64,000 bases of DNA. Source: Eledone cirrhosa. Taxonomy: Eukaryota. The stretch covers positions 12,586,001 through 12,650,000 of the forward strand of contig OZ024754.1 of assembly GCA_964016885.1 (NCBI GenBank), in the 5' to 3' direction. The notes beneath the pieces were generated by a model, which saw only the letters and a program-made list of their open reading frames with translations, did not search any database and was not told the DNA's origin. Below are positions 1,298 to 60,450 of this stretch, piece after piece. The translations under genes were made by a program, and so were the position numbers. Every line of letters begins with the position of its first letter. Position 1 is the stretch's first letter.

Positions 1298-2950
1298 ATA
1301 AGTATGTATATGTATGTGTGTGCGTGCGTGTGTGTGTGTATAAGTATGTATGTGTGTATGTGTGCGTGTGTGTGTGTGTGTGTATATAAGTATGTATATG
1401 TATGTTTGTGTATATATATATGTGCGTGTGTGTGTGTATATAAGTATGTATATGTATGTGTGCGTGTGTGCGTGTGTGTGTGTATATAAGTATGTATATG
1501 TATGTGTGTGTGTGTATATAAGTATGTATATGTATGTGTGTATGTGTGCGCGTGTGTGTGTATAAGTATGTATATGTGTGTGCGTGTGCATGTGTGTATA
1601 AGTATGCATATGTATGTGTGTATGTGTGTGTGTGTGTCTATATATATATGTGTGTGTATATATAAGTATGTATATGTTTGTGTGTGTATATATATGTGTG
1701 TGTATATATATGTGTGTGTATATAAGTATGTATATGTATGTGTGTATATATATGTGTGTGTATATAAGTATGTATATGTATATGTGTATGTGTGCGTGTG
1801 CGTGTGTGTGTGTGTGTATATAAGTGTGTATATGTATGTGTGTGCGTGAGTGTGTATATATATGTGTGTGTATGTATATAAGTATGCATATGTATGTGTG
1901 TGTGTGTGTGTATGTATATGTATGCGTGTATGCGTGTGTGTGTGTATATATAAGTATGTATATGTATATGTGAATGTGTGTGTATAAGTATGTATATGTA
2001 TGTGAATGTGTGCGTGTGTATAAGAATGTATATGTATGTGTGTATATATATGTGTGTATGTGTGTGTGTATAAGTATGTATGTGTGTATGTGTGTGCGTG
2101 TGTGTGTGTATATATTAAGTATGTATATGTATGTGTGTATGTGTGTGTGTGTGTGTGTGTATACATAAGTATGTATATGTATGTGTGTATGTGTGTGCGT
2201 GTATATATAAGTATGTATATGTATGTGTGTATGTGTGTGTATATGTATGTGTGTGTATATATATGTGTGTGTGTATATATAAGTATGTATATGTATGTGT
2301 GTATGTGTGTGTGTGTGTATAAGTATGAATATATATGTGTGTGTATATATATATGTGTGTGTGTGTATATATGTGTGTGTGTGTGTGTGTATAAGTATGT
2401 GTGTGTATGTGTGTGTGTGTATAAGTATGAATATGTATGTGTGCATATATATGTGTGTGTGTATATATAAGTATGAATATGTATGTGTGTGTGTATGTGT
2501 GTGTGTATATAAGTATGTATATGTATGTGTGTGTATGTGTGTATAAGTATGAATATGTATGTGTGTGTGTGTGTGTGTATAAGTATGAATATGTATGTGT
2601 GTGTGTGTGTGTGTATAAGTGTGTATATGTATGTGTGTATTTATATATATGTGGGTGTGTATGTATAAGTATGTGTGTGTATGTGTGTGTATAAGTATGA
2701 ATATGTATGTGTGTGTGTATAAGTATGAATATGTATATGTATGTGTGTATATATGTGTGTGTGTATATAAGTATGTATATGTATGAGTATATATATGTAT
2801 GTGTGTCTGTATAAGTGTGTATGTATGAATGTATATGTATACATACCTATATATGTGTATATAAGTATCTATGCATAATATATACATATATATATACACA
2901 ACGATACATAGACATACATACAAGAGGTGTGTATATATACGTACATATAT
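894..2950. repeat. Compound (TG/TA)n microsatellite punctuated by tataag
   Basis: Direct inspection. Confidence 0.97.
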
Positions 2951-3206
2951 ATGTTGATTTAAAACTGCACTATCCACAAGTGTGTTTTAACCTTCATATC
3001 ATGTCTTCCTGTTTTATCTGATGAAAACACAAATATTATTGCATGATGATGTTTGTTTTTGAAATGCGCATAATAAAATACATGGAACTCCTTTAACCAT
3101 CTTTTGATCTTATATTATGTATACTCCAGTCCTACAAACTGTAGAGTGCTTCTTATCCGATATCTGCATTGCTTTATTGTACTACAATAAAACTCACCTC
3201 CTACAT
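2951..3206 (+). mobile_element. ~255-bp hammerhead-bearing element (solo PLE pseudo-LTR or retrozyme-like) in a TA tract
   Basis: A near-identical rearranged copy lies at 8654-8970. Both end ...aaaactcacctcctaca(TA)n. Confidence 0.75.
3010..3080 (+). ncRNA. Minimal type-I hammerhead ribozyme
   Basis: tgttttat-CTGATGA-[16-bp stem II, loop gcat]-GAAA-tgcgca-TA-ataaaata. Stem I is 8 bp, stem III is palindromic, and the cleavage triplet is AUA. Confidence 0.85.
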
Positions 3207-3407
3207 ATATATATATATATGCTTTTAATGGCCTTATAAGGGAATCAGCTGGGACTTGGGTGGTGGTGGTGGTGGTGTGTTTTGTGTTGATGTTTGAGAA
3301 AGATGGTAGTGTGGTAGGGTAGTGTGGTGAGCTGTTTGTGTTAGTCTTTGTATTGATGGTGGTAGTGGTGGTGGGGGGTGGGGTTGATGGGGGGGGTTTG
3401 TGTGTTG

Positions 3408-4714
3408 TGGTGTTGGTGATGGTATTGACAGAGGGTGCTGGTATGGATGGTAGGGAGATGTTAGCTGTGGTGTGGTGGTGGTGGTGGTGTTAGTGGTGTT
3501 GGTGATGGTATTGACAGAGGGTGCTGGTATGGATGGTAGGGAGATGTTAGCTGTGGTGGTGGTGGTGGTGGTGGTGGTGGTGTTAGTGGTGTTGGTGATG
3601 GTATTGACAGGGTGCTGGTATGGATGGTAGGGAGATGTTAGCTGTGGTGTGGTGGTGGTGGTGGTGGTGTTAGTGGTGTTGGTGATGGTATTGACAGGGT
3701 GCTGGTATGGATGGTAGGGAGATGTTAGCTGTGGTGTGGTGGTGGTGGTGGTGTTAGTGGTGTTGGTGATGGTATTGACAGGGTGATGGTATGGATGGTA
3801 GGGAGATGTTAGCTGTGGTGTGGTGGTGGTGGTGGTGGTGTTAGTGGTGTTGGTGATGGTATTGACAGGGTGCTGGTATGGATGGTAGGGAGATGTTAGC
3901 TGTGGTGTGGTGGTGGTGGTGTTAGTGGTGTTGGTGATGGTATTGACAGGGTGCTGGTATGGATGGTAGGGAGATGTTAGCTGTGGTGTGGTGGTGGTGG
4001 TGGTGTTAGTGGTGTTGGTGATGGTATTGACAGGGTGATGGTATGGATGGTAGGGAGATGTTAGCTGTGGTGTGGTGGTGGTGGTGGTGGTGGTGGTGTT
4101 GGTGATGGTATTGACAGGGTGCTGGTATGGATGGTAGGGAGATGTTAGCTGTGGTGTGGTGGTGGTGGTGTTAGTGGTGTTGGTGATGGTATTGACAGAG
4201 GGTGCTGGTATGGATGGTAGGGAGATGTTAGCTGTGGTGTGGTGGTGGTGGTGGTGTTAGTGGTGTTGGTGATGGTATTGACAGGGTGCTGGTATGGATG
4301 GTAGGGAGATGTTAGCTGTGGTGGTGGTGGTGGTGGTGGTGTTAGTGGTGTTGGTGATGGTATTGACAGGGTGCTGGTATGGATGGTAGGGAGATGTTAG
4401 CTGTGGTGTGGTGGTGGTGGTGGTGTTAGTGGTGTTGGTGATGGTATTGACAGGGTGCTGGTATGGATGGTAGGGAGATGTTAGCTGTGGTGTGGTGGTG
4501 GTGGTGTTAGTGGTGTTGGTGATGGTATTGACAGGGTGCTGGTATGGATGGTAGGGAGATGTTAGCTGTGGTGTGGTGGTGGTGGTGTTAGTGGTGTTGG
4601 TGATGGTATTGACAGGGTGCTGGTATGGATGGTAGGGAGATGTTAGCTGTGGTGTGGTGGTGGTGGTGTTAGTGGTGTTGGTGATGGTATTGACAGGGTG
4701 CTGGTATGGATGGT
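3408..4714. repeat. G/T-rich minisatellite, ~72-80 bp unit with variable (GGT)n, ~17 copies
   Basis: Constant ggtgttggtgatggtattgacagggtgctggtatggatggtagggagatgttagctgt plus a variable GGT run. Confidence 0.95.
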
Positions 4715-6398: not shown

Positions 6399-6727
6399 CA
6401 CCAGGAAAGAAGACATGAAGGTCATGAGAAAAACAAAACATAAATCACAAACAGAGAGAAGTGCTCATTGAAAAAGCAATGCTCACTGCAACCTCCATAT
6501 CTTAGTAATCTACATAGCCAGAAGGTAGTTGGTAAATTCACAAAAATTACAGCAGGATTTCACAGGTGACCACATGAATATATATATATCTGGTCACCTG
6601 TCAAATCCAAATATATATATATATATATATTTTTTTTTTCTAGTCATATGCTTGGTGCTCACCGATCTGTCTAGCTCGTTTGTCTACCAGCATATCATGC
6701 AAAAAAGATTATACATCTCGTATGTAG

Positions 6728-6799
6728 TTTGTCTGAAGAGGACATGTTTTGGTTTATATTATACATAAAACTTTGCATCTTCGAAATATATATAATAAA
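6728..6799 (+). ncRNA. Minimal type-I hammerhead ribozyme, partly eroded stem II
   Basis: tttgt-CTGAAGA-gga...ttc-GAAA-tatata-TA-ataaa, with a palindromic stem III. Confidence 0.65.
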
Positions 6800-6858
6800 A
6801 TAAAGTTGATATAAAGTATATATCTTTCGTATATATATATATTGTATATATATATACA

Positions 6859-6932
6859 TATTTTATCTGATGAACGAAACAGACATTTCTGTTAGAATTG
6901 TCTAACTTCGAGAAACCTTGGGTAATGGAATA
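6859..6932 (+). ncRNA. Minimal type-I hammerhead ribozyme
   Basis: tattttat-CTGATGA-acgaa..agaca..tgtct..ttcga-GAAA-cc ttg gg-TA-atggaata. Stem I is 8 bp with two G.U pairs and the triplet is GUA. The first stem-II pair is mismatched here but is T in the paralogue at 22.3 kb. Confidence 0.7.
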
Positions 6933-7010
6933 ATTATATTATATTGTTTATTACATATTGAAACACACACACACACATATATATAAATGGACATTATTAT
7001 TATTAATATA

Positions 7011-8653: not shown

Positions 8654-8966
8654 ATAATATATAAGATCAAAAGATGGTTAAATGAGTTCCATGTATTTTA
8701 TTATGCGCATTTCAAAAACAAATATCATCATGCAATAACATTTGTGTTTTCATCAGATAAAATAGGAGGACATGATATGAAGGTTAAAAACACTTGTGGA
8801 TAGTGCAGTTTTAAATCAACATTGAAATGCGCATAATAAAATACATGGAACTCATTTAACCATCTTTTGATCTTATATATTATGTATACTCCAGTCCCAC
8901 AAATTGTGGAGTGCTTCTTATCCGATATCTGCATTGCTTTATTGTACTACAATAAAACTCACCTCC

Positions 8967-8970
<4 letters not shown>
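8654..8970. mobile_element. Second copy of the 2951 element, with an inverted 5' part and a forward 3' part
   Basis: 8654-8822 is the reverse complement of the first two-thirds of the element. 8823-8970 restarts forward at tgaaatgcgcata. Confidence 0.8.
8694..8764 (-). ncRNA. Minimal type-I hammerhead ribozyme (second copy of the 3010 family)
   Basis: The reverse complement reads tattttat-CTGATGA-stem II-GAAA-tgcgca-TA-ataaaata, with a perfect 8-bp stem I. Confidence 0.85.
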
Positions 8971-9011
<41 letters not shown>

Positions 9012-12230: not shown

Positions 12231-12893
12231 GATGACCCTCCTAAAGTATAACAATATATATATATATACCTATATATATAGGTATATATACCTATATATA
12301 TATATACCTATATATATATATATATACCTATATATATATATATAGGTATACCTATATATATATATACCTATATATATATATATATATACCTATATATATA
12401 TATATACCTATATATATTTATATATATATACCTATATATACCTATATATATATATATATATACCTATATATACCTATATATATATATATATATATATACC
12501 TATATATTCCTATATATATATATATACCTATATATTCCTATCATCATCATTTCATCATCATTTTATTTTACGTCCACTTTTTCCCTGCTTGCAAGGGTGG
12601 GACGGGAACTGATTCTGGCTTGATTTCTACAGCTGGATGCCCTTCGTAACACCAACATCATTTGCAGTGAGTGCTGGGTGCTTTTTTGCCGTGGCACCTC
12701 CACGACCACTTTGCAGTGGAATGATAGGGACCCCAGTCCTTATCATCTCATTTCTACAGCTGAGTAAACTGGAGCAATGTGAAATAAAGTTTCTTGCTCA
12801 AGGAAACAACACATCACTCAGTCTGAGAATTGAACTCACAACCTTTCGATTGCAAGCCCAATGCTCTAACCACTAAGCCATGTGCCTCCATGT

Positions 12894-21799: not shown

Positions 21800-22237
21800 A
21801 TCATCATCATCATCACCGTTTTACGTCCATTCTTCCACGCTAGCATGGGTTAGACGGATTCCTGTTGTGGGCAGTGTCCAGTTGGCTGACCTTGTCTTGC
21901 TCATACAGGAACTGATTCTGGCTTGATTTCTACAGCTGGATGCCCTTCCTAACACCAACCTCATTTACAGTGAGTGCTGGGTGCTTTTTTCCATGGCACC
22001 TACACGACCACTTTACAGTGTGGGCTGGGGGCTTTTTTGCCGTGGCACCTCCACGACCACTTTGCAGTGGAATGATAGGGACCCCAGTCTCTATCTCATT
22101 TCTAGAACTGAGTAAACTGGAGAAATGTGAAACAAAGTGTCTTGCTCAAGGAAACAACACATCACCCGGTCTGAGAATTGAACTCACAACCTTTCGATTG
22201 CAAGCCCAATGCTCTAACCACTAAGCCATGTGCCTCC
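21800..22237 (-). mobile_element. SINE-B variant with an internal duplication and alternative tail
   Basis: SINE-B head, but the tail matches the 17155/35433 composite. Confidence 0.85.
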
Positions 22238-60110: not shown

Positions 60111-60450
60111 GGAGGCACATGGCTTAGTGGTTAGAGCATTGGCCTTGCAATCAAAAGGTTGTGAGTTCAATTCTCAGACTGGGTGATGTGTTGTTTCCTT
60201 GAGCAAGGCACTTTATTTCACATTGCTCCAGTTTACTCAGCTGTAGAAATGAGATGATAGGGACTGGGGTTCCTATCATTCCACTACAAAGTGGTCGTGG
60301 AGGTGCCACGGCAAAAAAGCACCCAGCACTCACTGTAAATGAGGTTGGTGTTAGGAAGGGCATCCAGCTGTAGAAATCAATCCAGAATCAGTTCCCGTCC
60401 CACCCTTGCAAGCAGGGAAAAGCGGACGTAAAATGAAATGATGAAATGAT
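60111..60450 (+). mobile_element. SINE-B
   Basis: Family match. Confidence 0.9.

Follow-up and report, generated by a model that had tools for sequence, protein, structure and literature searches.

The window analysed here is a 64,000-nt stretch of the Eledone cirrhosa genome (assembly GCA_964016885.1, contig OZ024754.1, positions 12,586,001 to 12,650,000, forward strand), and the subject is a 256-bp repeat unit at window positions 2951-3206, termed U and numbered so that U1 is window position 2951. This unit is very probably a 5'-truncated terminal copy (~173 nt plus an 83-nt tail) of a Penelope-like element (PLE) of the Hydra clade, inserted in (TA)n and carrying a hammerhead ribozyme (HHR) predicted to cut after A3072. 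A preliminary description, made from the letters of the window, had reported a hammerhead element of this size and suggested a solo pseudo-LTR (pseudo-long terminal repeat) unit. The ~256-bp hammerhead-bearing unit is real, its type I layout can be read in the sequence, and the pseudo-LTR proposal is borne out, since U is the terminal module of a PLE and stands at both ends of a near-full copy. The parts of U and its flanks are the following.

2951-3123, plus strand: U1-173, the last ~173 nt of the PLE unit (end of the 3' untranslated region, UTR)
3124-3206, plus strand: U174-256, the 83-nt tail, with which the next unit and its 5' UTR begin
3010-3080, plus strand: type I hammerhead motif (from the sequence, the minimum free energy (MFE) fold, and conservation within and across families)
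3010-3017 paired with 3073-3080, plus strand: helix I (sequence and MFE fold)
3018-3024, plus strand: core CUGAUGA (sequence)
3025-3060, plus strand: helix II, 16 positions with one C.U mismatch and loop GCAU
3061-3064, plus strand: GAAA (sequence)
3064-3071, plus strand: helix III palindrome AUGCGCAU (sequence)
3072, plus strand: A3072, predicted cleavage-site nucleotide, the cut being predicted after it
3132-3144, plus strand: small hairpin CTACA-AAC-TGTAG in the tail (sequence)
2700-2950, no strand: TA/TG-rich microsatellite, the likely target (sequence)
3207-3222, no strand: (TA)n on the 3' side (sequence)

U is thus bordered by a TA/TG microsatellite on its 5' side and by (TA)n on its 3' side, and nearly all inspected copies are flanked by (TA)n. 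The boundary between U1-173 and the tail is blurred by TA-rich sequence at ~3115-3123, and the tail is found at only some 3' ends of copies.

The 3.0-Gb E. cirrhosa genome was searched with U at the DNA level, which gave 63 matches (40 scored of 85 candidates). Of 29 loci, 21 carry U1-173 in reverse complement immediately next to U1-256, five a solo U1-256, and three U1-173 as the end of a longer repeat. This longer repeat is very abundant and young, with 2,350 first-look candidates, of which the 40 scored were mostly 96-99% identical over 1 kb. In the long copies, an open reading frame (ORF) for a reverse transcriptase (RT) with a GIY-YIG domain and ~0.9 kb of 3' UTR precede U1-173, which runs into (TA)n. 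The exact junction from 3' UTR to U1 has 2,463 matches in the genome and the junction from U256 to 5' UTR has 213. At two loci (L047 and L125), U256 is followed without interruption by a full-length copy, from its 5' UTR and ATG on. Because U256 continues into the 5' UTR and start codon, U1-173 is the end of the unit and U174-256 its start. In the near-full copy L125, which has U at either end, the period of the unit is 3,655 bp. The 3' end of long copies is either close to U170 or at U256, with (TA)n next to it in every case, and a 491-bp 5'-truncated copy lies upstream of full-length copies, in direct orientation in L047 and inverted in L046.

The excerpts of Craig et al. 2021 (PMC8557442) used for comparison list as PLE features pseudo-LTRs formed from partial tandems, inverted 5'-truncated copies, a one-sided tail and microsatellite targets. 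They describe the Hydra clade by a C-terminal GIY-YIG without CCHH, a CxCX5C linker, DKT, RWK replacing GxKF/Y, (TA)n targets and canonical hammerheads. According to the corresponding parts of the supplement, Hydra-clade hammerheads have a 4+4 helix III with a loop of 0-2 nt and lie ~100 nt from the 3' end, and Hydra-1_Obim of Octopus bimaculoides is a 2,507-bp element in (TA)n. The E. cirrhosa element resembles this clade, as these excerpts present it, in having a single ORF in which a divergent RT comes before a C-terminal GIY-YIG. The RT motifs LKDHKNNF, FDIASYY, MGASDSS and YRDDG were read by eye. A linker CNCRIKNKC (CxCX5C) precedes the GIY-YIG, CNLC and CLH are also present, and the GIY-YIG core contains no cysteine pair and therefore lacks CCHH. 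The N-terminus shows RLRW(T) and SDKTNNLY, so that DKT is present; the K of RWK is not kept. The linker, the lack of CCHH and DKT were compared by eye with the published alignment. Insertion in (TA)n, pseudo-LTRs, inverted 5'-truncated copies, the one-sided tail and an HHR near the 3' end agree as well. The assignment to the clade is a match of features made by eye (section 11, supplementary alignment). The nearest ESM-Atlas clusters of the ORF are invertebrate proteins, some with RVT_1, which serves as a lead only.

The hammerhead motif of U contains the full type I core: C3 U4 G5 A6 N7 G8 A9, G12 A13 A14, A15.1-U16.1 and H17 are all found, in CUGAUGA, GAAA, U3071 and A3072. Helices I and II both appear in the MFE fold of 2996-3092, with helix I open. 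Conservation within the family was assessed on 104 ungapped instances from 70 loci, which were collected by BLAST and hence are unselected for the motif. At the 12 conserved core sites, 8 of 1,248 cells depart from the majority letter, compared with 398 of 8,216 at other sites (Fisher p = 4e-16, the cells not being independent); the free position N7 departs in 16 of the 104 instances. Per site, private variants fall in the core about as often as in the flanks (6 types at 12 core sites, 9 at 22 flank sites), while variants common to at least two loci comprise one core type against 11 elsewhere. All five helix I/II variants common to at least four loci keep pairing. A core spared by shared variants is what one would expect of active lineages that preserved it and dead copies that degenerate.

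The motif extends well beyond the U family. The 3' half pattern GAAATRYGYATAATRAAATA has 57,514 genome matches against one for its backward control, and a version that leaves the inner four helix III letters free and requires the T before GAAA has 74,163 against 26. A sample of 40 loci from the list of 57,514 gave 42 instances, 38 of which have CUGANGA at the right distance; the other four are truncated or rearranged. The sampled motifs fall in several families with quite different helix II sequences, and all four bases occur at N7 across families. A MAFFT alignment of 92 distinct motifs was scored over 18 named pairs: 97.1% of 1,653 cells pair, compared with 92.1 +/- 0.3 in shuffles, and the covariation score is 0.312, compared with 0.212 in shuffles, none of 500 shuffles reaching the observed value in either case. 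Slid controls gave at most 0.173 and at most 61% paired. The paired share of cells in the 92 sequences is 98.5% for helix I and 95.8% for proximal helix II. Changes on both sides were seen at six of six proximal helix II pairs (A-U/G-C and C-G/U-A exchanges) and at two of four helix III pairs; only the six proximal helix II pairs were counted because MAFFT misaligns distal helix II by one column between families. Helix II is constrained by none of the selection patterns and gives the cleanest signal.

Taken with the family data, these results support the view that the core, helix II and the helix III palindrome were kept while the families were active. The preliminary description had proposed selection on RNA structure during activity, on other grounds. 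The proposal is supported by the core-sparing shared variants, the pair-keeping helix I/II variants and the A-U/G-C exchanges between families; its own evidence, a comparison of two copies and a hairpin, does not carry it, as set out below. Beside the covariation score above 500 of 500 shuffles stand further measures at chance, which are given next.

A number of observations weigh against this reading of U as a conserved, cutting hammerhead of a Hydra-clade PLE. In the alignment, the measures that count pairs (8 vs 6.6 in shuffles, 44 of 500 reaching it) or pair types (17 vs 17.7, 499 of 500) are not above chance, and RNAalifold predicted 0 pairs on the 92 aligned sequences. The selection patterns fix the core boxes and the 3' strand of helix I by construction, and independent compensatory events are few, roughly 5-7, because the sequences form few families. 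Rfam hammerhead models gave no match, either across the whole window at the gathering score or in 2800-3400 and 6640-6960 at E<=10, and the folding energy is ordinary compared with shuffles (z = -0.58 over the 97-nt motif and -1.23 over all of U). Position 10.1-11.1 holds an A-U pair where G-C is usual; helix II starts with G in the Hydra-clade rows of the published material compared here and with A-U in the U family. On the protein side, the GIY-YIG match to Pfam PF01541 has E=0.0028, under the Pfam cut-off, and a Pfam scan of the RT part recognised no RT family. The unit of 3.66 kb contrasts with "generally <3 kb" in the excerpted account of the clade. In the anole PLE of Frangieh et al. 2024, the HHR cut only with protein present, HHR mutants left in vitro insertion unaffected, and no RNA-seq read ended at the cut site. 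Both an RNA 5' end at U1 and any cleavage in the U family are inferred.

The forms of helix III are AUGCGCAU, AUAUAUAU, AUAUGUAU and AUACGUAU, and its two inner pairs were tallied by eye at 100 listed places, with the inner four letters free and the T at 11.1 fixed by the pattern.

Pair 15.3-16.3 (100 places): G-C 40, A-U 55, G.U 2, A x C 3
Pair 15.4-16.4 (100 places): C-G 44, U-A 23, U.G 32, other 1

AUGCGCAU has no loop, and a monomer allows only 2 bp plus a tetraloop, leaving helix III unclosed in a single molecule. In the RNAcofold prediction, two molecules share an 8-bp helix III and form helices I in trans, at -40.5 kcal/mol for this dimer against 2 x -14.2 for monomers. The kept palindrome argues for pairing between two molecules, because a loop-less 4+4 helix cannot close in one, and a zero-loop palindromic helix III would force a double hammerhead (dimer) on any RNA that does cut. 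The site named in the preliminary description, A3072, is the one predicted here too, and any cutting would probably take place only in a dimer or with the help of protein. A more speculative idea, which is considered improbable, is that the palindrome is a dimer-linkage site, so that two template RNAs would be joined as a double hammerhead and each would be copied from one of the two DNA strands nicked by a dimeric reverse transcriptase/endonuclease (RT/EN). If true, such linkage would explain the head-to-head insertions, the occasional arms of mixed subfamily and the covariation of the palindrome across families, and the sharp U1 ends would then mark a transcription start inside the pseudo-LTR.

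A second hammerhead family lies in the same window, and two further motifs were noted by the way.

6733-6797, plus strand: sister-family hammerhead motif with CUGAAGA, helix II GGACAUG.../...CAUCUUC and helix III AUAUAUAU

This sister motif sits inside a (TA)n-flanked element at ~6640-6850. Close to it, at 6866-6935 (plus strand), is a further hammerhead-like string, CTGATGA...CTTCGA GAAA CCTTGGGT A ATGG, which has no Rfam hit; read by eye, its helix III could close alone, as ACC/GGU with a 3-nt loop. Another family, with helix II AGGCAUGCC..., was seen at L078:1020-1460 and 1700-2040; its architecture is that of U, with two inverted arms, a ~100-nt tail on one arm only and (TA)n flanks. In every family seen, the C at 10.4 of helix II faces U or C (window 3028/3057), while the surrounding pairs co-vary.

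The preliminary description had compared U with a copy at 8.7 kb of the window and read the differences as structure-preserving. The 17-mer CTGATGAAAACACAAAT is present at 3018 (plus) and 8740 (minus). What had been taken for a single copy is two partial U copies joined head to head.

8659-8822, minus strand: inverted arm, U1-165 as reverse complement, with a complete hammerhead motif (core 8750-8756 on the minus strand)
8822-8971, plus strand: plus arm, U109-256, 5'-truncated inside helix II, with the 3' hammerhead half, the tail, the CCACA/TGTGG hairpin and then (TA)n

The only complete hammerhead of this locus is in the minus arm, so that the earlier comparison mixes two arms. The listed differences themselves exist. 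The stem I change from G.U to A-U is confirmed (G3011 to A) as a one-sided transition. In stem II, A3035 to G and G3051 to A are present, on adjacent pairs and not on partners; they too are one-sided transitions by way of wobble pairs, from U.G to U-A and from A-U to G.U. Differences that had not been listed are T3006 to C, which breaks a predicted outer helix I pair, a 1-nt deletion at U34, and C3091 to A. We counted, on the sequence, that ~59% of the transitions open to these A-U-rich helices would leave the pairs intact; chance can therefore account for three such changes between two copies, and the comparison proves little.

The same holds for the tail hairpin at 3132-3144, whose change from CTACA/TGTAG to CCACA/TGTGG had been described as double compensatory. 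The sequences differ as described. Among 79 instances of U170-215 from 74 loci, the states were distributed as follows.

CTACA / TGTAG, U-A: 37 of 79
CCACA / TGTAG, C x A mismatch: 18 of 79
CTACA / TGTGG, U.G: 10 of 79
CCACA / TGTGG, C-G: 1 of 79 (this window, plus arm of the 8.7-kb locus)
Other states: 5 of 79
Unparsed: 8 of 79

The C-G state is thus unique in this survey. The mismatch is carried by 18 of the 19 copies of the CCACA subfamily, and the C-G pair is a one-off on that background, restored at a site that is variable elsewhere too. Because a mismatched subfamily spread to 18 copies, the change is no evidence for selection on the hairpin; this case argues against structural selection, and conservation of pairing there is unsupported.

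Most short copies are two-armed, and the exact palindromic U1-to-U1 junction occurs at 842 places in the genome. Among 31 head-to-head pairs (61 arms), 15 have a left arm that is closest to the right arm of its own locus (3 of these are ties), and the mean number of differences is 5 to the partner arm vs 10.7 to arms of other loci. No site was fixed differently between left and right arms of these pairs. Of the rare variants, 100 are confined to a single arm and 6 occur in both; of the subfamily variants, 151 are common to both arms and 55 are not. One locus, L093 (G000:C1:733135-733600), has two arms with different single changes in the helix III palindrome, GCGTAT vs ACGCAT. This locus and the 55 arm-discordant subfamily variants hint that the arms may come from two templates, and gene conversion between arms could mimic the similarity of arms.

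The ends of the copies are confined to a few places: 5' ends at U1 and U94-109, 3' ends at ~U170 and U256. The U94-109 ends lie on the 3' side of helix II and not at the predicted cleavage site U122/123. Cleavage does not define the copy ends, because they miss this site, and the idea that hammerhead cleavage sets the 5' ends was ruled out. Stalling of the reverse transcriptase at the long helix II hairpin may account for the inner ends. Arms starting at U94-109 were seen at window position 8822, at the L031/L028 junction, and at L062, L066 and L029. Two other candidates were also set aside: a DNA transposon with terminal inverted repeats, raised by the inverted ends at long copies, which are separate inverted truncated copies; and a 75%-identical "older family" in L029, which is a rearranged truncated copy of U's own family.

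Frangieh et al. 2024 reported that a PLE protein nicks and extends both DNA strands in vitro, and that reverse transcription starts at two internal sites whose spacing equals the tail. The short copies of U would be made by target-primed reverse transcription from either internal site, ~U170 or U256. The cDNA would run to the RNA 5' end at U1, probably a transcription start inside the pseudo-LTR. Extension of both nicked DNA strands from similar templates would then yield inverted arms, each two-armed copy being made afresh from one or two similar RNA templates. Logan contigs of sequencing runs X1, X4 and X6 cover U, one of them at very high summed depth, and are silent on RNA ends. The summed contig depth in run X1 roughly doubles from ~3050 onward.

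Four other explanations of U were weighed. The preliminary description had called the unit retrozyme-like. A metazoan non-LTR retrozyme would be a tandem non-coding unit whose multimeric transcripts are cut by the HHR into monomers and circularised, the circular RNA being the transposition intermediate. The 256-nt size, the low G+C content, a type I HHR whose palindromic helix III is weak, and the link to PLEs would all suit it, judging from the parts of PMC7229834 and Li et al. 2026 drawn on here. In its defining sense the label is not supported, however: no head-to-tail array of U was found in 73 loci with 1.5-kb flanks, the only head-to-tail U256-U1 junction genome-wide (spacer <=12 nt allowed) joins a tail stub of 34 nt to U1-165, the copy ends described above avoid U122/123, and the run X1 contigs contain no sizeable go-back joint. 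The tandem multimers that the preliminary description proposed to look for are missing from these loci, and a retrozyme is very improbable. A DNA-level origin, in which U is a fold-back element or miniature inverted-repeat transposable element (MITE) whose terminal inverted repeats are moved by a transposase and whose hammerhead arose by chance, can draw on the fact that most copies are palindromes with a perfect centre flanked by TA repeats. It is contradicted by the unequal arms (173 vs 256 nt), the junction at the 5' ends of the arms, the series of 5' truncations, the identity of the module with the 3' end of an RT-encoding element, the persistence of motif core and pairing across diverged families, and the 26 matches of the backward control pattern vs 74,163, and has practically no chance of being correct.

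The short unit and its head-to-head form might alternatively be a non-autonomous family, similar to short interspersed elements (SINEs), that is copied from master short elements and does not arise as a by-product when the long element inserts. Hundreds of copies with the same ends, among them the 842 exact junctions, are what such a family would produce, and the short-copy subfamilies are 91-98% identical to the window copy, compared with sampled long copies that are ~99% alike. Nevertheless, the closeness of partner arms and the lack of any fixed left/right difference in the 31 pairs fit fresh generation at each insertion, RNA transcribed across a perfect palindrome of 173 bp would serve poorly as a template, and long copies with older HHR variants exist (L029 and L032); a SINE-like family is thus judged unlikely. 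The remaining explanation accepts the conserved RNA and denies its activity: a hammerhead-shaped but non-cutting structure for binding, priming or dimerisation that serves the RT/EN protein. Helix III that cannot close in a monomer, the A-U at pair 10.1-11.1, the poor in vitro cutting of minimal PLE HHRs described in the parts of Cervera & De la Pena 2014 (PMC4209133) used here, and the behaviour of the anole HHR and its mutants all point this way. On the other side, the positions that are invariant in active lineages are exactly the catalytic core, and the free N7 shows all four bases, a pattern that is hard to explain by protein binding alone. A non-cutting RNA is unlikely, and a terminal PLE copy with a hammerhead predicted to cut is preferred.

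Comparison with published hammerheads shows both shared and divergent traits. The portions of PMC4209133 compared here describe HHRs in PLE terminal repeats with a long helix II, a short A-U-rich helix I and a weak helix III, for which dimers were proposed, and thousands of motif copies, mostly solo, with opposite-strand pairs 100-700 bp apart. The U family is like these in being of type I, in lying in a PLE terminal repeat and in its massive occurrence (~74,000 copies here). It differs from them, as far as those portions go, in having 16 positions in helix II compared with 7-8 bp, a helix III that is a full 8-nt palindrome without a loop, and the 10.4/11.4 pyrimidine-pyrimidine mismatch that is kept in all families seen. 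Relative to the Hydra-clade material excerpted from PMC8557442, its tail is 83 nt compared with 30-40 bp, its HHR sequence is unlike the published Hydra-1_Obim row, and its copy number is very high. Against the known PLEs covered by these sources, the combination of a 3.66-kb unit, an 83-nt tail, a 16-position helix II starting with A-U and a loop-less palindromic helix III differs.

Retrozymes, according to the parts of PMC7229834 and Li et al. 2026 used, are head-to-tail tandem arrays expressed as circular RNAs and are proposed to derive from PLEs or be moved by them. U is like those in the excerpted PMC7229834 in being a short non-coding HHR unit linked to PLEs, and some retrozyme HHRs work as dimers; unlike them, as far as these sources describe, U is scattered through the genome, solo or head-to-head, with ends that do not fall on the cleavage site. 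In helix III there is a likeness to type I hammerheads of amphibian satellites and axolotl, as cited in the same parts of PMC7229834, which have a helix III of 1-2 bp plus a palindromic tetraloop; the known ones are inactive alone and active as a dimer. As a monomer, the U-family motif would similarly consist of A-U and U-A plus a tetraloop GCGC, AUAU, AUGU or ACGU. The amphibian hammerheads belong to a different host element and have a different sequence, and activity in the U family is predicted only.

Hammerheads of PLEs were already known, and on the question of their role this genome offers a very large natural data set. Several diverged families together provide ~74,000 copies of the motif; the source element of 3.66 kb is young and nearly intact, and short two-armed insertions whose ends are fixed number in the hundreds. 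The copies record two reverse-transcription start sites and, at U1, the probable beginning of the template. The double-hammerhead (dimer) idea and the model of PLE insertion with both strands primed are thereby testable in one system. Within the window itself, the U element is an ordinary repeat.

Other observations concern the surroundings. A long G/T-rich (GGTGGT-like) minisatellite occupies 3240-3500, directly after the 3' (TA)n of U. Three near-identical matches to the Rfam tRNA model, at 12819-12882 (minus), 22171-22228 (minus) and 60118-60181 (plus), score 30-33 bits with truncated model ends and look like the heads of tRNA-derived SINEs and not like tRNA genes. Just upstream of one long PLE copy, at L031:1391-5828 (minus), lies an element resembling a long interspersed element, with an AP-endonuclease-like ORF and an RT that starts ...GKSPGLDGLP; it is unrelated to U.

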